Below are positions 4,444 to 18,451 of a DNA stretch of 64,000 bases, in pieces. Numbering within the stretch: position 1 is the first letter of the stretch; each line of letters opens with the position of its first letter. The notes beneath the pieces were generated by a model. That model had not been told where the DNA came from. It searched no databases and saw only the letters and a program-made list of their open reading frames with translations. The DNA comes from a virus. Location: IMG/VR virus record IMGVR_UViG_3300037883_000122, positions 1 through 64,000 of that record; one strand, given 5' to 3'. Made by a program: the position numbers and the translations under genes.

Positions 4444-6645
4444 ATGTCCAAATTGTATCAAATCGGCAACGGTGGTCAGGACGGTACGATCAACTCGCTG
4501 GTCGCCAAGGTTCAAGGTCACTTCAACCGCGGCCCCGCCGTCGACAAGACCCTCGCTTCGCGCGTCGTCGCGATGGAATCGTTCAGCGACGGCGATGTCC
4601 GTACGCAAGAACTCGACACCTCGATCAAGGGCCTGAAGGCTGCCCTCGAAGGCATCAGCTCGACGTTCGCATCGGAAATGAACCAGAACGACGGCATCGT
4701 CGCTGGCAAGCACACGGCTGCTCAGAAGCAAGCTGGTCTCGTCGCTGCGATCGTCGCAGGCGACATGAAGGGCTTCCTGTCGGCGCCGGTCAGCCGCAAG
4801 ATGTCGCTGGAAGGCTACACCTTCATCCCGGCAGTGGGCAACGGTGCGATGGACAAGCGTCAGTCGAAGGCTCTCGAAGCTTACGACGAACGCGAAACGA
4901 AGGCTGCGACCGTGTACTCGGTGGCGTACAACCTCCAGGCTGCTCGCCAGGACGAATTCGGTGAAGCGTTCTTCCCGACCGTCGTCGTGACGCCGGACCA
5001 GTACGGCTACACCGTCTCGATCCGCCTCGTGCAAGTGTACGACGAAGTTCGCCGCACCATCGACGGCGCGGTCAGCAAGAACTTCGGCAAGAAGAACATC
5101 ATCCAGGCATTGATCGACCCGACGATCCTGCGCAACGACCTGTCGAAGATCATCCCGGTCTTCCGTCCGGAAGCTGCTGCAAACTTCGTGTCGCCGACCC
5201 TGGTTCCGACGCAAACGATCGACCACGAAGGCATCTCGGTCGCGACCGGCCCGCTGGCGATCAACAAGCAGTTCTCGCTGCTCGGCATCTCGCAAACCGA
5301 CGCGCTGCTCGAAACCGGCATGCTGGATTCGACCGACGCGATCGACCCGGCTATCAAGCTGTCGGCTCTGTACCTCCAGGTCGGCACGGGCGGCTCGGCT
5401 GAAGTGATCAAGTTCAAGTCGGTGGCCAACATGCAATCGGGTACCTTCACGTACTCGGTGCAGAACAACTACCGCCTGATGTCGCTGAACTTCATCAGCA
5501 ACGCGCTGGTGATCAACAAGAACACGACGAAGGCCGACGGTACGGCTTCGACGGCTCTGGCGTCGATCGTCACGGGCAACTACGAAGTCAAGTTGTCGAT
5601 GCAAGTGTTCGGTACGGTCAACCTGGAACTGGCAGACACGCAACTGTCCGCTGGCGCTGTGTCGATCTACGAAGTGCGTGACGAAGACGGCAACCTGGTC
5701 GACACGACCACGGGTCCGGGTGCAACGATCGCGACGGCTCTGGCCAACGCGCAAGTCATCGGTTACGACCTCGACGCACGTCGCACGAACACGAACCGTC
5801 GTGAACGTGGTCAGCTGCTCGACCTGACGTTCTACAACATGGTTTACGGCGTGCCGCTCCTGTCGCCGATCACGATTCCGCGTCCGCTGACCCTGGGTGA
5901 CCAGAACGATGCGTCGGACCTGGCTGCGCTGATCACGGCAACGCACATCCGTACGTCGAACGCTGCAGTTGCGAAGCTGCTCGAGGCAGAAGGCGCGCTG
6001 AAGGAACTCGTCACCAGCAATGGCGGCCTGTACCAAGGCGATCCGGAAATCCTCGGCGTGGCACGTTTCCTCGTGACGCCGTTCTACGAGAACCAGCAGT
6101 ACAGCGCACCGGCTGTGGTGGACTCGATCAAGTCGCACGAACGTGCGGCCGACATCCAGGCTTCCCTGGTCAACCTGCTGCGCGACATGGTTTATCGCAT
6201 GTACCGCGACTCGGGCTTCAAGGCTGCTGCTGACGCGCTGGCTGGTGGCGTCGCTGCTACGCCGACCGTGATCATCGGTACCGATCCGGTCATCGCACGT
6301 TACCTGCAAGTGACGGGCGACTTCCGCACGCTGGGCAATGACTTCAACGTCAAGATCGTCTCGACGCTGAACATCAACATGCGTGGCAAGATCCGCTTCT
6401 CGTTCGGCGAGTTCGGTGAAGGCAAGGAAGGCGTGCCGAACCCGATGCACTTCGGCAACATGGCATGGAAGCCGGAACTGACGTTGATTCTCCCGCTGCA
6501 TCGCAATGGCGCGAACAGCAAGGAAATCACCGTGCAGCCTGCGTTCCTGCACGTGGTGAACCTCCCGATCATGGGCTCGATCGATGTCTCCGGCATCGAA
6601 CAAGTCGTGACCGCGAAGGTCGCAGTCAACATGCACTCGGTCTGA
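4444..6645 (+). CDS. Major capsid protein (phiKZ gp120-like)
   Basis: 733 aa with strong codon bias. Motifs QDEFGEAFFPT, RRTNTNRRERG and IGTDPVIARY as in phiKZ-like capsids. N-terminal A/S-x-E protease sites (AME, ALE, SLE, ALE145). Confidence 0.92.
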   Translation: MSKLYQIGNGGQDGTINSLVAKVQGHFNRGPAVDKTLASRVVAMESFSDGDVRTQELDTSIKGLKAALEGISSTFASEMNQNDGIVAGKHTAAQKQAGLVAAIVAGDMKGFLSAPVSRKMSLEGYTFIPAVGNGAMDKRQSKALEAYDERETKAATVYSVAYNLQAARQDEFGEAFFPTVVVTPDQYGYTVSIRLVQVYDEVRRTIDGAVSKNFGKKNIIQALIDPTILRNDLSKIIPVFRPEAAANFVSPTLVPTQTIDHEGISVATGPLAINKQFSLLGISQTDALLETGMLDSTDAIDPAIKLSALYLQVGTGGSAEVIKFKSVANMQSGTFTYSVQNNYRLMSLNFISNALVINKNTTKADGTASTALASIVTGNYEVKLSMQVFGTVNLELADTQLSAGAVSIYEVRDEDGNLVDTTTGPGATIATALANAQVIGYDLDARRTNTNRRERGQLLDLTFYNMVYGVPLLSPITIPRPLTLGDQNDASDLAALITATHIRTSNAAVAKLLEAEGALKELVTSNGGLYQGDPEILGVARFLVTPFYENQQYSAPAVVDSIKSHERAADIQASLVNLLRDMVYRMYRDSGFKAAADALAGGVAATPTVIIGTDPVIARYLQVTGDFRTLGNDFNVKIVSTLNINMRGKIRFSFGEFGEGKEGVPNPMHFGNMAWKPELTLILPLHRNGANSKEITVQPAFLHVVNLPIMGSIDVSGIEQVVTAKVAVNMHSV

Positions 6646-6734
6646 AGGACCCGCTTGGTAGAAGTAACTGACCTGGATGGATTTAACGTCTATCCAGGTT
6701 AACCCGTTGCCAAGGGTGCAGCTGTTGGGGCTGG

Positions 6735-6775
6735 GGCTCCTCCTGGGGAAACCTGGGAGGAGCCTTTTATGCCGT
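6735..6775 (+). terminator. Terminator after the capsid gene
   Basis: GGCTCCTCCTGGG-GAAA-CCTGGGAGGAGCC followed by TTTTATGCCGT. Confidence 0.8.
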
Positions 6776-6963
6776 CGGTTCAGAAGGTGAGTCGGGCCGA
6801 TCAGAATTGCTGGGAGTGAATTCTTACCTGAGTTTGCTAATGTTTTGAGGAGAACCGGCAACGGAACTTCTTGAAGTGCTTCGGTAGGACGGACGTCGCC
6901 TAACCAGCTTCGTCCGCTCCTCGGTTTATGCCGTTCTTCCGAAACGACATGTGAGAAACTGCC

Positions 6964-6999
6964 GTCATAGCGCGAGGCCTAGGCCTCGCTTTTATGCCC
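6964..6999. terminator. Palindromic hairpin with CATA/TATG feet
   Basis: GTCATAG-C-GCGAGGCCTAGGCCTCGC-TTTTATGCCC. Confidence 0.65.
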
Positions 7000-7020
7000 T
7001 TGTATCAAAAGTAGATTCAA

Positions 7021-7036
7021 ACATATATTACTAACT
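7021..7036 (+). promoter_or_regulatory. phiKZ-type early (virion RNAP) promoter, TATATTAC
   Basis: ACATATATTACTAACT. The core matches the phiKZ early consensus TATATTAC; a near-identical copy is at 52321; it precedes the nvRNAP-subunit operon. Confidence 0.75.
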
Positions 7037-7105
7037 TGCGACAGTATGAAAGAGGCAGTCAGGAAATGAAGTACCTGGCTTAACGTTAGCAGTTGGAGTC
7101 CCAGT

Positions 7106-10095: not shown

Positions 10096-12171
10096 ATGGT
10101 GAATTTACAAGGTGGTCAGCTGCCTGCAGACCCGTACAACGCGGAACGGCAGCCTCTGCAGGGTATCTCGATCGGTAATCCCCCATTCGTCCCGCAGTTC
10201 AATGCGCCGGGATTCATGGGTGATCTGATCCCTGTGATTGCTGGTGCAATTGCGACGGACATTCAGGAGAACGCGCTGCGCACGCCCGCGCGCATGTTCA
10301 CGTATAACCTGGTGTCGCGCAACGCCTTCCAGAACGAAATCTTTGCAGGTCTCGTAATCGGAGTGACGGACTGGGTCTGTCTGGCGCTGGCAGATCGTAA
10401 GTTCCAGAACCCAGAACAAGCAGCGCAGGCACTCGTGCCGAAGATGGTCGAGATGTTCGTGGCCATCCAGATTCTGCAGTACCAGGAGTTGCAGAAGGAC
10501 TGCCCGCCGCAAGCGCAGCAGACCGTCGAGAACCTGGGTCGGATCTGGACCGAGTTGCAAAACGAAATCCCGCAGTTCAAGGCATCCAATGTCTACGCGC
10601 AGATGATGCAAGGCGGCTTCGGCGGCGGGAATGTCGGTGGTGGTTGGGTGCAGCAACAGCAAGGCAACCGTTGGGGTGGCGGTGGTCAGGCTGGTGGTCA
10701 GTGGGGTGGAGGCGGTGGTCAGAACCAGGGTGGACGTTGGGGCTCGGGTAACCAGGGCGGTGGCTGGCAGGGCAACCGTCAAGCACCACGTCAATTCACG
10801 GGGATGAACGCCGGTAACACGGGTCTGTTCACGGGCGGTGGCGGCGGCACAGCCGAGGGTAGCAGCTCGGATCGCTTCAACACGGATCGTTTCGCGAGCC
10901 GTGGCGATGCTGCGCAACAACAGCACAAGCCGGACCCCAATTCGTCCTGGGTGCCGAAGAACGCTCCGTCGGAGAAGGTCGACAAGATGACCGTGGCGGC
11001 AACAGCGCCAGTGCAGCAGGTGGAAACGAAACCGGTGCAGAACGAGCCGGAACACATCGACACCACCAAACTGAAGTGGCGTCCGTCGTTGTCCCAGCCG
11101 TATGCGCTGGCGTACAACCCGCGTACGCAACTGATGTATCTGCAACAGCAAGCCGACGGCACTGTTCTCCAGCTCGTGAAAGAAAGGACGGAAATTCCCA
11201 TGGACCGTGAAAAGCATCGCCTACCCACAACCTTCGGTAGCGCACCGAAGAACGTCGATACCAGCAAGTCTGCCGAATCGCTCCAACGCGTGAAGGCTGG
11301 CGTGAAGGAACTGACGGCAGTGGTCGGCGACGGTGAAGCGGGCGAAGAACCGCCGAAGCGTCCGTTGGTGCAGGTGATCGAAGATGCATGGGTGCTGGAA
11401 ACGTCGGAAACCCTGGCGTGGCTGCAAGGTACCCTGAAGTGCATGGCAACGGTGAAGGACTCGCAAGTGCCGGACGTGTTCCGTGTGCGTGCGCAAGTGG
11501 CCGAGCCGTTCGTCGCAGCAGTGGACGAACGTGGTGCGATCCAGTCCTTTGCAGAAGCGAAGTCGTACTCGGAACTGCGCGAGATGATGTTGTCGGTGGA
11601 AGGTGCGATGTCGGCGGCGCTGTATCAGGCCGTCAACCTGCGCATGACCGATGTCATCAATCGCGTGCTGGGCCAGAGCCTGTCGATTCCGGATATCCGC
11701 ATCACGTCGTTCGTCGACGACGCGGAAGATGTGGGTCCGGCGATCGAGCAGTACTACGGTGATGCGTTCTCGAATGCTTTCCTGGGCAACCAGGTGAAGA
11801 ACATTCGCGCAGCGTTTGCCGAGTTCGTCACGGAAGAAGAAGAGGTGCTCCTCACGGAGAACCTGCTGATGGATCGCGAGTATTCGAAGGACAAGGGGCC
11901 GAAGATCACGTATCTCGTCGCCAACTTCACGCTCACGTATCTGAACGTGTCTGCTATCGAGCTCGAGTTGGAACTCGATCCGGCGGACAAGATTGCCTCG
12001 ATGATCACGAGCGATCTGCCGGAGTTGTACGAGCTGGCCCGCAGCATCTTCGAAGCGACGGAAGGCGAGAATTTCCATCGCCATCTGATTCGCACGGCTG
12101 ACGACCATCTGCTGGAAGTCACGCAAGGCCTCATTGGCCAGGACGTGTATCTGATCCGTAAGGTGAAGTAA
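10096..12171 (+). CDS. Conserved hypothetical protein with G/Q/W-rich low-complexity linker
   Basis: 691 aa, AAGGA RBS, host-like codon usage, internal GGW/GGQ repeats. Confidence 0.8.
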   Translation: MVNLQGGQLPADPYNAERQPLQGISIGNPPFVPQFNAPGFMGDLIPVIAGAIATDIQENALRTPARMFTYNLVSRNAFQNEIFAGLVIGVTDWVCLALADRKFQNPEQAAQALVPKMVEMFVAIQILQYQELQKDCPPQAQQTVENLGRIWTELQNEIPQFKASNVYAQMMQGGFGGGNVGGGWVQQQQGNRWGGGGQAGGQWGGGGGQNQGGRWGSGNQGGGWQGNRQAPRQFTGMNAGNTGLFTGGGGGTAEGSSSDRFNTDRFASRGDAAQQQHKPDPNSSWVPKNAPSEKVDKMTVAATAPVQQVETKPVQNEPEHIDTTKLKWRPSLSQPYALAYNPRTQLMYLQQQADGTVLQLVKERTEIPMDREKHRLPTTFGSAPKNVDTSKSAESLQRVKAGVKELTAVVGDGEAGEEPPKRPLVQVIEDAWVLETSETLAWLQGTLKCMATVKDSQVPDVFRVRAQVAEPFVAAVDERGAIQSFAEAKSYSELREMMLSVEGAMSAALYQAVNLRMTDVINRVLGQSLSIPDIRITSFVDDAEDVGPAIEQYYGDAFSNAFLGNQVKNIRAAFAEFVTEEEEVLLTENLLMDREYSKDKGPKITYLVANFTLTYLNVSAIELELELDPADKIASMITSDLPELYELARSIFEATEGENFHRHLIRTADDHLLEVTQGLIGQDVYLIRKVK

Positions 12172-12185
12172 AACGTCCAACGACG

Positions 12186-12225
12186 GGTCTGGGGGGTAAC
12201 TCCCAGACCTTCTTTTTTTATGCCC
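12186..12225 (+). terminator. Intrinsic terminator
   Basis: GGTCTGGG..CCCAGACC stem followed by TTCTTTTTTTATGCCC. Confidence 0.8.
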
Positions 12226-12246: not shown

Positions 12247-12690
12247 ATGAATCTCAAGGTCAATGAAGATCTGGAAGCACTGAATGTCCACGATAAGCGG
12301 ATGAACGTGCTGGTGACCGGCGGTAAAGAAGATGATCGCGCTGTTATCCAGGACGTCATCTTCAACGCATTGGAAGGAGCGGGCTTTCGTAGCCTCTATT
12401 ACGAGGCGAACGCTTATAGCGCTGAACCGCCGATGGAAGTCAAGTCGATTCTGGATGCCATGAAGGAACAGAATCCTGCTTTCTTCGACATGCCGATTAC
12501 GATCGAGTCGGCGAATCGCATCTACGATACGGTAGGTGGGACTATTACCGAGGCGTGCGATTTCCCCGAGGAAGTCCCGAACAACGAAGCGTGGCAGCGC
12601 GTAACGGATCGTTTGAATCGCCTCCACGGCAACACCGACCGCGGTCCGCTCGAAATGGAAGTCAACGGCAATATCGTGATTCGCTTCTGA
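12247..12690 (+). CDS. Small paralog family member 1 (degenerate P-loop-like module)
   Basis: GAGGAGG RBS; L..AGF and SILDAMKEQNPAFFDMPITI motifs shared with downstream paralogs. Confidence 0.8.
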   Translation: MNLKVNEDLEALNVHDKRMNVLVTGGKEDDRAVIQDVIFNALEGAGFRSLYYEANAYSAEPPMEVKSILDAMKEQNPAFFDMPITIESANRIYDTVGGTITEACDFPEEVPNNEAWQRVTDRLNRLHGNTDRGPLEMEVNGNIVIRF

Positions 12691-12713
12691 AAGACCAAGG
12701 AAACAAGGAAACC

Positions 12714-13862
12714 ATGAAAGTCATCCCGCAGTACAGCTTGGAACACGCCGAATACTTCGTCGACGGGAAGTTCAATCATGCCGAAAACAAAACGGTCACG
12801 ACAGGTCGCTCCGTTCTCAGTGCCCCGCTCGTCATCGCGAAATCGATTCCGTTTCTCGAACTGGCCAAGACAGATCTACTGCTCGAAGAAAATGTGATTG
12901 ATTCGAAATGGGCGATCGATCCTGAGTACGTGCGGCTGGAATCGGTGGCCATCGAATTCCCTGGCTTGCCCAAGCTCATCAGTTCGCATATCGGTCTGAA
13001 TGTCGAAGAGGCGCTCTTTCGTCCGACCGCGCAACACACACCACACCACCTGCTGATCGTCAAGAAGAAGATCCCGGTGATCGTCGGTTTGTCGGAACTG
13101 GCCGCCTGCAGCAGTTACGACGATCGTGCAGCCCATGCACCGCTGCTGCAATATGCAGCCGAGCAGAACCTGCATCTGGTTTTCTCGATGGAGATCTCGG
13201 GTTCGGTGAACATAGCGACCGGCACGGTTCGTCTTTTGTCGAACTCGTTCGATCTCGTGTCGATTCTGGACCACGCAGGCAGACTGCTTGAAGCCACGAA
13301 CAGTGCAGAAATCAATAAACTGCGCGAGTACGTGAAAGACGCACATCCGCGCGGCTACTCGTTGGATGCGAACTGGCTACAGACGAACGAAGCCCAGACC
13401 TATCAGTTCGAGATGGGTGACCCGAATCCAATCGGTCGCGGCATGGCACTCCTGGTGCGCGGTTATCTGTTGTCGGCTCCTTCGGTCGGCTACGCAGCAG
13501 AGATCACCGAACCCTCGGTGAGCAAGGTCGGTGCCACCAAACTCTACCTACAGCCTGATCGTACCTCGGAACCGGAATGGTACGTGACGATCGAGGAAGG
13601 CTTTGAGTTGTCGCCGGGTGAGTGCAACATCGCGTTCCATGCTCACGGCACGGAATGGGCCAACGTACTGGACGATAACAACGAAACGATCAAGCGCTGG
13701 AAAGAGCTCGGTCGTTGGGAAAGTATCGCACCCGGCGCGTACGGTTTGTGGGTCGAAGCAATCGCGCAATTCCTGCTGGATGGCGAGGAGTATTATTTGA
13801 CGAACACGTTGCCGGATACGATTCCCGAAGGTGTGGGGTATCGCGCAACTGACAACGGTTAA
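12714..13862 (+). CDS. Major-capsid internal-domain paralog fused to an uncharacterised domain
   Basis: ATG 12714 with AAGGA RBS. Residues 1-219 align to capsid residues ~235-445; the C-terminal half resembles ORF 13896..14297. Confidence 0.8.
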   Translation: MKVIPQYSLEHAEYFVDGKFNHAENKTVTTGRSVLSAPLVIAKSIPFLELAKTDLLLEENVIDSKWAIDPEYVRLESVAIEFPGLPKLISSHIGLNVEEALFRPTAQHTPHHLLIVKKKIPVIVGLSELAACSSYDDRAAHAPLLQYAAEQNLHLVFSMEISGSVNIATGTVRLLSNSFDLVSILDHAGRLLEATNSAEINKLREYVKDAHPRGYSLDANWLQTNEAQTYQFEMGDPNPIGRGMALLVRGYLLSAPSVGYAAEITEPSVSKVGATKLYLQPDRTSEPEWYVTIEEGFELSPGECNIAFHAHGTEWANVLDDNNETIKRWKELGRWESIAPGAYGLWVEAIAQFLLDGEEYYLTNTLPDTIPEGVGYRATDNG

Positions 13863-13895
13863 GTCAGAGACCATCCTGAAAGGAGTAAGTGACGC

Positions 13896-14297
13896 ATGAG
13901 CGCCCGTAAGAACCCTGTCCTTCCCGTGACTGTTTCGATGGCTGATAACGTGCCGAATCCGTTCGGTTACGCGATCATGGGAATCCTGCAGGCTAAGCTG
14001 TTAGCAGTGCGTTCGGTATTTCCGAACATCCAGCTGAAAACTATGTACGTGTGTGAGACGCCGGATGAAATGGCCCACACCCAGTTCTGCTTCCTGGATC
14101 TGAATCGCATGGGAGACAAAATCCCCTATGTGACGATGAGTGAGTACCAGGACCCAGACGGTGAAGTCCGCTACGATCTCTGGTTACACCAGGACGGTCG
14201 AGTGGAAGAACTCTTCGTCGAGGCGATTATCGAAGAAGTAGTTGTGGCTGCCAATACCGTCTGGACGCACCTCAAACCGCAGGCGCTCTCGAAGTAA
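13896..14297 (+). CDS. Hypothetical protein, paralogous to the C-terminal domain of 12714..13862
   Basis: AAGGAG RBS; MADNVPNPFGYAIMGILQAKLL compared with MGDPNPIGRGMALLVRGYLL. Confidence 0.7.
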   Translation: MSARKNPVLPVTVSMADNVPNPFGYAIMGILQAKLLAVRSVFPNIQLKTMYVCETPDEMAHTQFCFLDLNRMGDKIPYVTMSEYQDPDGEVRYDLWLHQDGRVEELFVEAIIEEVVVAANTVWTHLKPQALSK

Positions 14298-14368
14298 AAC
14301 TTACGACCCCGAACCATCAGATGGAGAGCGCTCCGGCGTTCTCCGTCTTATGAACCCAGCGAGGAAAG

Positions 14369-14818
14369 ATGAGTCCCGAAGACATCAACATCACCGTCGA
14401 AGCCCAAGGCGCAGAAACACGCCAACTGGTTGCGAGTTTGATCTCCAACCGTCTGACGGAGGCGGGCTTCACGAACGTCGACGTGGGTCTCGCGACCCGC
14501 GAAGACAAAACGAGCACGCCCATCGCCGCGGAAGCGATGCCGTCGTTGCTCGACGCAATCAAAGAAGCCAACCCGGCTGTGTTCGCACGTCCGGTGAGCA
14601 TTCTGGCCATGCCCTTTAGCGACATCATCGACGGCGAGCGGATCGTCCACGTGGCGTTGATGAAGGATCGGTCGGATATGGAAGAAGGTCCGGAGCTGGA
14701 GCCGGGCCAAGGTCGTTTGGAAGACGGCACGATCATCGATCTGGCGACCTATGTGTCACCGGACGGAACGCGACTGGCAGAAGCTCTGATCGAAGTCGGC
14801 GCGGGTCAACACGTCTAA
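14369..14818 (+). CDS. Small paralog family member 2
   Basis: GAGG RBS; LTEAGFTNV...SLLDAIKEANPAVFARPVSI. Confidence 0.8.
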   Translation: MSPEDINITVEAQGAETRQLVASLISNRLTEAGFTNVDVGLATREDKTSTPIAAEAMPSLLDAIKEANPAVFARPVSILAMPFSDIIDGERIVHVALMKDRSDMEEGPELEPGQGRLEDGTIIDLATYVSPDGTRLAEALIEVGAGQHV

Positions 14819-14827
14819 GGAGTACGG

Positions 14828-15439
14828 ATGGCACAGGTATCCGAACGCTTCGCTGCCCAAAAGGAACGCATCCTGGAACGTCTTCAGGAAGGCCCCTTAA
14901 CGGCATTAGAAGCCTTGGAGAATTTGGGTGTCATGCGAATGGCTGCCCGAGTTCACGATCTGCGAGCAGACGGTCATCCGATCGTTTGTGAGACTGTCGT
15001 TGTGCCTAACCGATTCTCGGAAGAAAGTCGGGTGGCACGCTACAGCTTGCAGCCCGAACAACATAATCAACCTACGAAGCAGGGAAGTAACATGAGCGAA
15101 GCACTTGACAACAATCCGACGCAAGCCGCAGGCATCATCATTGCCTCGGACAACATCAACCAGCGTCAAGCTATCTCGGTTGCCGTCAGCAAAGGTCTGA
15201 AGGACGCCGGTTTCACCAACGTCACGGTGGTGGTCGACAAGAGCGACGACCCCAGCCGGATCGACGTCACACCCGAAAATGCGGAATCGCTGCTCGGCTC
15301 GATTAAGGCCCTCAATCCCGGCCTCTTCGACGCGCCGATCAACATCCTCGCCGCAACGGGCGGTGGCGCGGGCGCAGAGCTCGTGCAGGACATCATGGCC
15401 GACGCCCAGGAAGACGGCTCGGCAGTGACCACGTTCTAA
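14828..15439 (+). CDS. Winged HTH (HTH_39-like) domain fused in frame to paralog family member 3 (internal start 15092)
   Basis: QKERILERLQEGPLTALEALENLGVMRMAARVHDLRADGHPI...VARYSL, then LKDAGFTNV...SLLGSIKALNPGLFDAPINI. Confidence 0.75.
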   Translation: MAQVSERFAAQKERILERLQEGPLTALEALENLGVMRMAARVHDLRADGHPIVCETVVVPNRFSEESRVARYSLQPEQHNQPTKQGSNMSEALDNNPTQAAGIIIASDNINQRQAISVAVSKGLKDAGFTNVTVVVDKSDDPSRIDVTPENAESLLGSIKALNPGLFDAPINILAATGGGAGAELVQDIMADAQEDGSAVTTF

Positions 15440-15514
15440 GCAGTAATCGTCACCGGCTTGCCCTGCTTCGGCAGGGCAGCTATGCCTCTTTACAACGGAA
15501 ACAAGGAAAAGATC

Positions 15515-15859
15515 ATGTCTCTGGAAGAGCACGAAGAAGCCGCAGCCAGTATTGTCATCAGTGCACGCAGCAGCGACCTTGCCCAGGCTTTGGGTAAGGT
15601 TGTTGGTCATGCGCTGACGGAAGTGGGCTTCAGCAGTGTCACTGTGACCCACAGTGACGAGGAGGGCGAAGAAGCGGTCGATCAAACCGATCTGGAGCAA
15701 GGCAAGTCTTTGCTGGAAGCCATCGCGGATGCGAACCCGGATACGTTCCGTGGTCCGATTGCGATCCACAGCTTCGGCTTGAGCGATGAGACGGATATGC
15801 TCCCGCCGGAAGAATCAGCACACCTCGCCGAGATCATTGCGGAGAACGACGAGGATTAA
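15515..15859 (+). CDS. Small paralog family member 4
   Basis: AAGGA RBS before ATG 15515; LTEVGFSSV...SLLEAIADANPDTFRGPIAI. Confidence 0.8.
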   Translation: MSLEEHEEAAASIVISARSSDLAQALGKVVGHALTEVGFSSVTVTHSDEEGEEAVDQTDLEQGKSLLEAIADANPDTFRGPIAIHSFGLSDETDMLPPEESAHLAEIIAENDED

Positions 15860-15874
15860 CCCGAGGAGAGTAAG

Positions 15875-16363
15875 ATGGAGACGCCAGTCAACATCTTGGT
15901 GGAATCACCCGATCCGCTCAAGGCGAATCTGGTTGGCAAGGCCATCGCACAGAGCCTGAGGGACAGCTATGGCTTTAACACGGTCATGCATGCCCATGTG
16001 TTGGTCGACACACCGGAGAGCCGTTCCTGGACGGTGTCGACTGCTGAGGAGCAGGAGGAGAGTATTCTGCAGGCCATGGTGAATCTCAATCCAAGCATCA
16101 TGGACACGCCTGTTACTGTCCTGAGCCGCGGCAACGACGACACGTCTGAGCCTGACATCTCCAAGATCGACCAGCTGCAAGGGCATCGTGGGATTCTGCT
16201 TCAAGGCATCGGTGACGAAGCAGTAAGCTTTGATGAGCTGCGGGAAAAGGCGTGGCAGGCGGCTCAGCCCACGCTTCGGCCGATGGTCGAGAAGTTCGCC
16301 CAGGAAATGATTGACATGTTCGATAGCTCGGGCTTGTCGGCCACCGGGGTCAAGAAGTTCTAA
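15875..16363 (+). CDS. Small paralog family member 5
   Basis: GAGGAG RBS; LRDSYGFNTV...SILQAMVNLNPSIMDTPVTV. Confidence 0.78.
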   Translation: METPVNILVESPDPLKANLVGKAIAQSLRDSYGFNTVMHAHVLVDTPESRSWTVSTAEEQEESILQAMVNLNPSIMDTPVTVLSRGNDDTSEPDISKIDQLQGHRGILLQGIGDEAVSFDELREKAWQAAQPTLRPMVEKFAQEMIDMFDSSGLSATGVKKF

Positions 16364-16408
16364 TGCAGTAGCGGGTGGAGCAATCCACCCGTCTTAAGGA
16401 GAGAAAAG

Positions 16409-18370
16409 ATGACGAATCGCTTCAAAGCAGGCGTGCGCGTGACCATCGACGGTCACTGCCATACGGGCAAAACAATCCTGATGCAGGCTTTCGCGGCCTT
16501 TCTGGAACAATGTGGCTTTCCGGCGGAACAGATCGCTCAATTGTGCGACACGCATGAAGGCGCGCGTATGAAAGGCCAGGATGCTATCGATTACCTGAAG
16601 AAGGCGATTGCCGACGGTCTCTGGAAGGACAACCAGCTGGTCTTCCTCGAGCGCATCGTACCGCGTGCCTTCCGAGCCGATCCGGCCAAGCCGATGATTC
16701 TCGAGTGGGATGCCATGCCGGATCTGTCGCAACACGCACTGCCGCACAATCCGGCGTTTGCGCTGCCACATTCGCAGGTGGAGTTCGAGATGACGAATCG
16801 GCCTTCGAAAGCAGACGCGGTCCGTAACAGCCTGCTGGTGATGCTGAAGTTCGCGGGTGTGATGGCCGCCATCAAGAACTCGCTGCCGCAGGGTGTGACT
16901 GTTCCCACGGATGTCGAGGAATGGATCGCGAAGGCCGGGGTCTTCGCAGAACACACTGATCCGGCACGCTTGGATGCTCCGGACGTGATTGCTGAAACGA
17001 ATCGCGACTACTTCAACGTGTGGGCTGCGGGTGGCGACTCAGTCGCAGGACGTGCAGCTCAAAAACGCCTCATGTTCGCCGGAATGGAAGTTCCTGAGAT
17101 CAAGGGTGTGCGTTTTAAGGATTCGTCCAAGCTACTCCAGCCCAAGCGTTTCTGGCAAGCAGGTTCTCCCGGTGCACTGTTGCTCAACGAAGCAGACCCT
17201 GCTGCAGAACTGACAGCCAGTCTGTGTCGTCGTGGTTATCGCGACTTCTTCGAGGAGCACGCGATCGGTAACTTCGACGTCGTCGATCGTGAACGGGCAG
17301 GGTTCTATTACGATCGTGCCCGTGAGGAGCAGGAGCCGAACAATCCGCACCGGGCGATGATGGAAGTGAGTGTCTATCGTAAAGACAGAGTACCCCTGAC
17401 GAAGGAGGCAGTCGAAACCGCTCGTCAGATGCTCTTCCAATACGATCCGCTCATCATCCTGACGGTCAAGCTGCAGAACTCCAGTCTTTCTGGTGCTCAT
17501 GTCTCGGCCAGCAAGCCGTTGTTCAAGAAGCAACCGCGTGGGATGACCTCCGCCATCTTGCATTTCGATGATGCGCCGTTCCAACCGCGCCTGGAAACCT
17601 TGGCGGACATCACCAAGAACCACTTCGCAGTGCGCGCTACGGACGCTCGTCCTTTCACGCCTGAAGGTGGTTGGCCTGCAGACTTTGATGTTGCACCGTA
17701 TCGCCAGCAGATTCATCCGATCACGGGTGAAACGCTGAATCAAATGGCGGATCGCGCTCAACCGTTCATCAAGACGAAGAACCTGGGCGAACATGTCGCA
17801 CTGGACTACTCGGATCTTCCGGCGGATCTGATGTTTGATCCGAAGTGCGGTGTGCGCTGGAAGACGACGGCTGAAATGGCAGAAACGCAGGCTGAAGTGG
17901 ATCGAATCTTCGACGCTGTGCAGGATGGAACCGCACAAATCGTTCGTGATGGTACCGGTGAAGTCATGATGGTGTTTTTGCCGACACCAGCTGATGAAGT
18001 TCGGGTTCTGAATCCGGAACCGAAGCCCGCGTACTTCAGCGGTATTACGGATGATTCTGCGCAGGCATCGGCGGACGTGAAAGACCTGTTCGCTGAAGCG
18101 CCGCCCATCAGCAAAGGCCTTCAGTTGACTCCGGAGCAGTCGCAGCAGTTCGAAGAGCGTCTAGCCAGACCAGCTCCGCCTACCGAAGCAATGAAGAACG
18201 CGCTGGACAAGCTTCGTTTCGGTGCGCCGGTAGTTAACGCAGAGCCGACGGCGTTCAGTGTTCTCGAGGGTGACAAGTCTTCTGTCCAACCAGCACCTAC
18301 CAGCAACCTGACCAAGATCCACGACGGCGGTACGAACGGCAATCGCTTCTTGCCGCCTTCTGACGAGTAA
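16409..18370 (+). CDS. Mosaic protein: N-terminal P-loop module plus antitoxin-like segments
   Basis: AAGGAG RBS; Walker A GHCHTGKT; later segments resemble Phd/YefM and the DUF1778 C-terminal motif. Confidence 0.75.
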   Translation: MTNRFKAGVRVTIDGHCHTGKTILMQAFAAFLEQCGFPAEQIAQLCDTHEGARMKGQDAIDYLKKAIADGLWKDNQLVFLERIVPRAFRADPAKPMILEWDAMPDLSQHALPHNPAFALPHSQVEFEMTNRPSKADAVRNSLLVMLKFAGVMAAIKNSLPQGVTVPTDVEEWIAKAGVFAEHTDPARLDAPDVIAETNRDYFNVWAAGGDSVAGRAAQKRLMFAGMEVPEIKGVRFKDSSKLLQPKRFWQAGSPGALLLNEADPAAELTASLCRRGYRDFFEEHAIGNFDVVDRERAGFYYDRAREEQEPNNPHRAMMEVSVYRKDRVPLTKEAVETARQMLFQYDPLIILTVKLQNSSLSGAHVSASKPLFKKQPRGMTSAILHFDDAPFQPRLETLADITKNHFAVRATDARPFTPEGGWPADFDVAPYRQQIHPITGETLNQMADRAQPFIKTKNLGEHVALDYSDLPADLMFDPKCGVRWKTTAEMAETQAEVDRIFDAVQDGTAQIVRDGTGEVMMVFLPTPADEVRVLNPEPKPAYFSGITDDSAQASADVKDLFAEAPPISKGLQLTPEQSQQFEERLARPAPPTEAMKNALDKLRFGAPVVNAEPTAFSVLEGDKSSVQPAPTSNLTKIHDGGTNGNRFLPPSDE

Positions 18371-18396: not shown

Positions 18397-18451
18397 GACG
18401 GCATAGAGCGAGGACCCTAGGGTCCTCGCCTTATGACCGTCTTTTTTTTTT
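18397..18451. terminator. Bidirectional hairpin between convergent genes
   Basis: GACGGCATAG-A-GCGAGGACCC-TA-GGGTCCTCGC-CTTATGACCGTC followed by a T run. Confidence 0.8.

Follow-up and report, generated by a model that had tools for sequence, protein, structure and literature searches.

Gene content of the locus

The window analyzed here covers positions 1 to 64,000 of an IMG/VR record of 98.8 kb, which is estimated to be 31% complete. The nearest isolate is the Burkholderia glumae phage FLC9 (322 kb), which has the same gene order. DNA of the window is present in soil metagenomes, and none of the public runs found to contain it is an RNA data set. The gene under study, which we refer to as P0001, starts with an ATG at 12714 and runs as a 382-codon frame to 13862 (Table 1). 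An earlier note on this DNA had placed the end of the open reading frame at 13370; that position marks the end of similarity to the major capsid protein (MCP), and the frame continues to 13862. The note had also credited the gene with its own ribosome-binding site and, indeed, a tandem AAGGAAAC AAGGAAAC precedes the start codon, the second AAGGA of which (12705-12709) forms a Shine-Dalgarno-like site 4 nt before the ATG. Only 23 nt separate the P0001 start from the stop of the preceding 147-aa gene, and the two genes are probably co-transcribed.

Table 1. Features of the P0001 locus and of the coat-protein gene from which its N-terminal domain derives (window coordinates).
Feature	Position	Strand	Evidence
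MCP gene, 733 aa, parent of the copied domain	4444..6645	+	PF25620 E 3.6e-193; PDB relatives
MCP residues 235-450, insertion (I) domain matched by the copy	5146..5793	+	BLASTP, PMC11297242 limits, VIA, I-domain HMM
11-bp GC-rich hairpin, T-run and TTATGCC; boundary between core operon and accessory island	12185..12224	+	Terminator scan, intergenic listing, motif count
147-aa gene 5' of P0001, 56% identity to FLC9	12247..12690	+	Gene list, tblastn vs FLC9
Tandem AAGGAAAC AAGGAAAC just 5' of P0001	12697..12712	+	Read from sequence
P0001, whole gene, 382 aa: I-like domain, linker and C-terminal domain	12714..13862	+	ORF list, translation
P0001 residues 1-226, diverged copy of the phiKZ-type MCP I domain	12714..13391	+	BLASTP, PF25620, VIA
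P0001 residues 227-238, inter-domain linker with family-invariant Glu233	13392..13427	+	pLDDT <50 over 226-238; ortholog alignment
P0001 residues 239-382, acidic alpha/beta C-terminal domain	13428..13862	+	AF2 model of the domain alone

The genes around P0001 are non-structural and accessory, and most phiKZ-like phages lack P0001. Its placement in an accessory block, as previously proposed, is well founded, with the gene residing in a mosaic island behind a strong terminator; the island opens directly after the hairpin at 12185-12224. Searches with PADLOC returned no defence-system match for P0001 or its seven neighbors. Further GC-rich hairpins, each with a T-run and TATG(C/A)C after it, are found at gene-block borders at 6646-7105 (three copies), 14318-14356 and 18397-18437. 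This hairpin-TATG signal recurs in intergenic DNA throughout the window, in which TTATGMC was seen 14 times vs 7.5 +/- 2.8 expected. The elements may represent terminators, phage-RNA-polymerase start sites, or both.

Several neighboring genes deserve a brief description. Judging by cross-matches in tblastn against FLC9, five small genes (12247, 14369, the C-terminal half of 14828, 15458 and 15875) are mutually paralogous, and P0001 and a 133-aa gene at 13896 are inserted within this array (12247-16363). The 203-aa protein encoded at 14828-15439 carries an N-terminal winged-helix HTH_39 domain (E 3.6e-14) that its FLC9 ortholog, which matches residues 89-203 only, does not have. Upstream of the island, the 691-aa protein encoded at 10096-12171 has a Gly/Gln/Asn-rich low-complexity middle (approximately residues 160-260); it is 85% identical to FLC9 gp89 and its PHROG matches are all of unknown function.

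The N-terminal domain corresponds to the insertion domain of the coat protein

The MCP encoded in the window has solved relatives that include phiKZ gp120 (8Y6V) and phiKp24 (8BFL). In BLASTP, residues 2-219 of P0001 align with residues 235-445 of this MCP at 25% identity (E 2e-11), and the four matching blocks listed in the earlier note are all present in the alignment. The Pfam profile PF25620 (PhiKZ_MCP) scores 61.8 bits on P0001 against a gathering cut-off of 27 (E 4.7e-17), with the match confined to profile positions 146-367 of 635, and PHROG 3231 'major head protein' matches the same segment (E 1.4e-14). We also built our own I-domain HMM from the equivalent segment of 22 MCPs, and it matches P0001 over model positions 5-221 of 225 (E 8e-22). 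At the level of structure, we used an AlphaFold2 model of P0001 computed from a nine-row alignment, three rows of which were MCP-derived, without templates (mean pLDDT 78). Foldseek matched the model to 8Y6V and 8BFL (E 2e-13), and VIA-align superposed its residues 1-226 on gp120 251-467 with a Z of 19.1 and an rmsd of 3.5 A over 210 residues. The capsid paralogy claimed in the earlier note thus holds by BLASTP, Pfam, PHROG, our own HMM and predicted fold.

The published layout of phiKZ gp120 consists of an N-arm (164-204), the I domain (248-472) with its two linkers (205-247 and 473-484), and then the P and A domains (PMC11297242). The I domain is an elaboration of the HK97 E-loop that rests on the A/P junction of the neighboring subunit, while I-domain dimers bridge capsomer borders (PMC11297242); the Goslar structure paper presents the same picture (PMC13742148). 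Contact between coat-protein subunits is the only documented activity of the domain (PMC11297242; PMC13742148), which is also the outermost part of the coat protein. Since the P0001 model superposes on gp120 251-467, within the published limits of 248-472, the copied piece is, according to the predicted fold, the I domain proper, with ends that fall just short of the two linkers. Whether MCP residues 235-445 constitute the insertion domain had been raised as a check, and the VIA overlay on gp120 together with the published limits (PMC11297242) answers it in the affirmative.

It was further proposed that a discrete domain had been excised without the propeptide or the rest of the shell, and this description is accurate: P0001 contains the I domain only, without propeptide, linkers or HK97 core. 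Homology begins at P0001 residue 2, and the mature MCP chain starts near residue 146, which leaves P0001 with no counterpart of the propeptide. A complete HK97 core (N-arm, P and A domains) is likewise lacking, the PF25620 match spanning 146-367 only, and the remaining ~150 aa have another predicted fold with no capsid match at Z >= 8. The term "stand-alone", on the other hand, had to be abandoned, as the region of homology (to ~13391) is the N-terminal domain of a two-domain protein in which a conserved C-terminal domain of ~145 aa is fused to it.

The C-terminal domain

When modeled alone with AF2, the C-terminal domain is predicted to form one helix, a five-strand antiparallel sheet and two helices (pLDDT 81, pTM 0.80). 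It is acidic (pI 4.4, net charge approximately -13), a property seen in most family members. Among PDB structures, the best match reached a Z of 6.9 and none reached 8. The middling matches (Z 5.5-6.9) are mutually unrelated and comprise Mediator Med17, PsiB, the TriTu immunity protein, CapZ and AcrIIA11; we therefore draw no function from them. Nothing was found at E <= 0.001 among BFVD viral models, there was no usable match in the ESM Atlas, and a full HMMER pass over 1.84 billion representatives recovered orthologs only and no outside relatives. The domain has no Pfam or PADLOC match. Likewise, neither Pfam nor PDB sequence searches detected a Tad1/Acb2-like sponge domain in P0001, and PF24729 has no match in the 98.8-kb record. 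An [S/A/G]-x-Glu head-protease motif is not conserved in or near the linker among the six orthologs, bearing in mind that this protease specificity is itself presumed for the phage group.

Selection and divergence in the mosaic island

Relative to FLC9, genes flanking the island are 85-97% identical (MCP 94%, nvRNAP-like gene 97%, 764-aa gene 93%) and genes within 12247-18370 are 33-89% identical, with P0001 at 60%. Within P0001, the I-like domain is 51% and the C-terminal domain 75% identical, compared with 91% for the I domain of the MCP. The same division is apparent at synonymous sites: dS against FLC9 is 0.24-0.57 for core genes and 1.6-1.8 for P0001 and two neighbors, the latter values being near saturation and rough. 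The three island genes measured (12247, 12714 and 15875) exceed the flanking core genes in dS by a factor of three to seven, and this points to alleles having been exchanged with more distant phages, not to a local speed-up. Because dS is high in island genes and low in the core, the comparison indicates that the island alleles are much older than the core, consistent with exchange among related phages and not merely with fast protein evolution. A second case agrees: in what is apparently one contig of 326,614 bp, the length listed for both proteins, the MCP is 94% identical to that of the window and the P0001 ortholog 56% identical.

The dN/dS ratio of P0001 is 0.17 overall; the I-like domain has a ratio of 0.25 and the C-terminal domain one of 0.09. 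Judging from these two ratios, both parts of the protein are under purifying selection. The possibility that P0001 is a pseudogene or an MCP fragment was ruled out by the intact frame in six genomes, the overall dN/dS and the conserved C-terminal domain.

A rare family with its own conserved residues

The P0001 family is rare, with six full-length members including FLC9 gp87 (60% identity to P0001). The other full-length orthologs are two JGI proteins (83% and 56%) and two metagenomic proteins (36% each). Profile searches of metagenomes added a single C-terminal fragment (L004), while IMG/VR searches with the family alignment (A1), P0011, P0013 and P0014, the last three being metagenomic proteins described below, gave no match. 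The same was true of a genome-contig profile search with P0013. We discarded P0010 (2166 aa, with repeats) as a relative, its match being a false one driven by the repeats.

Across the six full-length proteins, 66 positions are invariant, and Tyr7, Trp66, Arg74, Pro104, Pro121, Glu128, Arg190 and Trp221 are invariant residues of the family's own. We compared these with 38 MCPs. Asp298 (numbering of the window MCP), invariant among the MCPs, aligns with the family-invariant Trp66. An Asn-Tyr-Arg loop that is nearly invariant in the MCPs, and whose counterpart in phiKZ reportedly contacts the I-domain dimer, is lost in the P0001 family, where the loop Arg is replaced by His, Trp or Lys; the same Arg is kept in all five other I-domain-only proteins covering that column. 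The published salt-bridge positions of the phiKZ I-domain dimer are not conserved among MCPs, although the numbering used for this comparison reproduced only 1 of the 4 named residues.

Other phages carry I-domain-only genes

A survey for similar partial capsid paralogs had been suggested at the outset, and it revealed more I-domain-only genes in phiKZ-like phages. We searched 50,697 phage genomes with the MCP I domain and found few records with extra I-domain matches. FLC9 gp132 (L016 6689-7441) is a 250-aa protein and the third PF25620 match in FLC9; it lies 44 kb away within a series of small genes, a position that falls outside the 98.8-kb record of the window. Pseudomonas phage Phabio gp274 (L017 5665-6612) is 315 aa long and adjoins small hypothetical genes. 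It is labeled 'major head protein' in RefSeq though it consists only of a 108-aa N-terminal extension and the I domain. Xanthomonas phage RTH11 carries a partial version of 179 aa (L018 5212-5751). All three genes are situated among small accessory genes. A match in Bacillus phage AgentSmith was rejected as an I-domain-only gene, being that phage's 716-aa MCP-type gene.

Among metagenomic proteins, P0011 combines a 180-aa extension and P0013 a 113-aa extension with the I domain. In P0014, encoded on a Logan contig of 8.1 kb, the I domain is fused to a gp184/Tad1-like domain of 100 C-terminal residues, with homology to phiKZ gp184 at E 7e-17 and to Tad1 at E 1.5e-7. In phiKZ, gp184 is an inner minor capsid protein, and it is reported to be the anti-Thoeris sponge Tad1, with an N-terminus wedged in the capsid and a C-terminus that the head protease releases for injection (bioRxiv 10.1101/2025.11.23.690004). 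P0001, P0011, P0013, P0014 and Phabio gp274 share the same I-domain HMM limits of approximately 5 to 220; in FLC9 gp132 and the RTH11 gene, the match does not start until model position 27. A separate PHROG of unknown function, phrog_36436 (229 positions), has matches in the MCP I domain (E 5e-7 to 3e-9), P0013, P0014 and Phabio gp274 but not in P0001 and, by these profile matches, probably represents another set of I-domain-only proteins.

When I domains were placed in a maximum-likelihood tree, the six P0001-type proteins grouped as a clade with 100/100 support on a stem of 2.19 changes per column, and Phabio gp274 falls within the Pseudomonas-phage MCPs (96/91). A single clade of all I-domain-only proteins was not rejected by the AU test (p 0.131). 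Given the nesting of Phabio gp274 and the outcome of this test, the I-domain-only proteins may stem from one excision event or from several.

Possible functions of P0001

We considered four readings of P0001, which in decreasing order of probability describe it as an accessory factor directed at the MCP, an exapted fold, an immune decoy and an agent of inter-phage interference. Our tentative preference, held with less than even confidence, is for the MCP-directed accessory factor. Because coat-protein contact is the known job of the I domain, the simplest assumption would be that the I-like domain of P0001 still recognizes coat protein. As we infer from the published lattice (PMC11297242), the docking sites would all be filled in a finished shell, and a free copy would act on coat protein that offers free sites, be it in subunits not yet assembled, at the edges of a growing procapsid or at the portal vertex. 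The last of these is a candidate since penton partners are missing there. Because every I-domain site is occupied in the closed lattice, a role in assembly or loading would be expected rather than general decoration. Once docked, the I-like domain would place the C-terminal domain at that coat-protein site. P0001 would then either modulate head assembly, without being essential, or be associated with the head as cargo or adaptor.

An accessory factor of this kind is consistent with the identity of the domain, which is backed by sequence, profile and fold, and with the exact I-domain limits (HMM ~5 to 220) that recur in independent architectures. It also agrees with P0014, which puts an I domain where gp184/Tad1 has its capsid-wedging N-terminus, and with a functional gene, as reflected in the 66 invariant positions of the six orthologs and the dN/dS of 0.17. 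The residues lost from the domain are harder to reconcile with it, as Asp298 has become an invariant Trp and the Asn-Tyr-Arg loop is gone together with its Arg. Identity to FLC9 of 51% for the I-like domain, against 94% for the MCPs, is not what one would expect of a fixed interface, the linker shows no conserved [S/A/G]-x-Glu motif, and the gene has a non-structural neighborhood and is missing from most phiKZ-like phages. A complex prediction for MCP residues 146-733 with P0001, run with an alignment for each and without controls, scored 0.00 and speaks neither for nor against this reading. An exapted fold is a possible but doubtful reading, in which the I-like domain would have given up any dealings with capsids. 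It would provide the variable, target-binding part of a protein for host interaction or counter-defence, and the conserved acidic C-terminal domain would be the effector. The I-like domain evolves faster than the C-terminal domain (dN/dS 0.25 vs 0.09; identity to FLC9 51% vs 75%), the family has invariant residues of its own where MCP-invariant ones went, the stem branch is long (2.19 changes per column), and the island is mosaic and accessory, with a dS of 1.6-1.8 vs 0.24-0.57 in the core. Nevertheless, no partner or activity can be named for such a protein, its C-terminal domain having no relatives and no Pfam or PADLOC match, and paralogs of structural proteins usually go on acting on the parent structure.

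The earlier note had suggested, among other options, a soluble capsid mimic acting as an immune decoy, and coat proteins are known to trigger the defence systems CapRel-SJ46 and Lit. A soluble look-alike of the exposed capsid domain could bind a host coat-protein sensor and stop it from firing, and the outermost position of the I domain, the accessory island with its deep allelic diversity, as would suit a counter-defence locus, and the Tad1-like anti-defence domain carried by one I-domain-only protein, P0014, are all compatible with this. We nonetheless regard a decoy as unlikely. The copy is only 25% identical to the I domain of its own MCP and does not track it (between window and FLC9, the copies are 51% and the MCP I domains 91% identical), MCP-invariant surface residues have been exchanged for others, and a sensor-binding look-alike would be expected to trigger the sensor unless specially disabled. 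Because a decoy should follow the surface that it imitates, these sequence differences weaken it even more than they weaken faithful contact mimicry, and the literature searched contained no capsid-fragment decoy. Least probable of the four, in our judgment, is that P0001 caps the coat protein of a related jumbo phage in the same cell and disrupts head assembly of that competitor, while the MCP of the phage that encodes P0001 is insensitive. Capsid or scaffold look-alikes that redirect assembly are exemplified by the SaPI proteins Ccm and CpmB, and divergent P0001 alleles are exchanged among related phages. On the published contacts (PMC11297242), a free I domain should also compete for the docking site on unassembled subunits. 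However, the MCPs of the relatives known to carry the gene differ little (94% identity), so that self and non-self could hardly be told apart.

Duplicated coat-protein genes that encode whole proteins are known, T4 gp24 being one example, and P0001 belongs to this wider theme of capsid-gene paralogs. The I-domain-only kind is undescribed, in that the literature searched contained no account of such a paralog maintained by selection as a gene of its own. The I-domain-only pattern recurs in several phiKZ-like phages with varied fusion partners, one of them anti-defence, and this recurrence with different partners suggests that the I domain serves, as a portable module, some purpose away from the shell. 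A bolder and rather improbable extension would have the I domain serve as a reusable 'capsid address' or look-alike module that jumbo phages fuse to varied effectors, such as the Tad1-like anti-Thoeris sponge of P0014 and the acidic domain of P0001, loading heads or blunting capsid-sensing immunity, in which case P0001 would be a new head-associated or capsid-mimicking counter-defence protein. Since FLC9 is cultured and has two I-domain-only genes (gp87 and gp132), the role of a free capsid domain is directly testable.

Comparison with known systems

Both insertion domains and decoration proteins are regarded as lattice stabilizers. Decoration or cement proteins such as lambda gpD, T4 Soc and phiKZ gp35 and gp244 would be functional analogues of P0001 if it sits on the capsid, yet P0001 has no sequence or fold relation to them. 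The T4 vertex protein gp24, a paralog of the MCP gp23, has the full-length HK97 fold and builds pentons. Like P0001, it is a second gene derived from the coat-protein gene in the same phage; in contrast to gp24, P0001 has the accessory insertion domain only and cannot form a shell.

The I domain of phiKZ gp120 (8Y6V 248-472; PF25620) has the same fold and the same limits as the N-terminal domain of P0001. P0001 differs in being a separate gene product that lacks the N-arm, linkers, P and A domains and propeptide, in its 25% identity to its own MCP with several MCP-invariant residues replaced, and in the unrelated C-terminal domain fused to it. The other I-domain-only genes share the same excised domain and carry N-terminal extensions of ~110 or ~180 aa, no partner at all, or a Tad1/gp184-like C-terminal domain. 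They keep the loop Arg, whereas the P0001 family has lost it and forms its own clade on a long branch. Finally, although the C-terminal domain of P0001 shows no similarity to Tad1/Acb2 and its linker no protease motif, gp184/Tad1 has a two-part logic comparable to that proposed for P0001, with a capsid-associating N-terminal part joined to a C-terminal effector.
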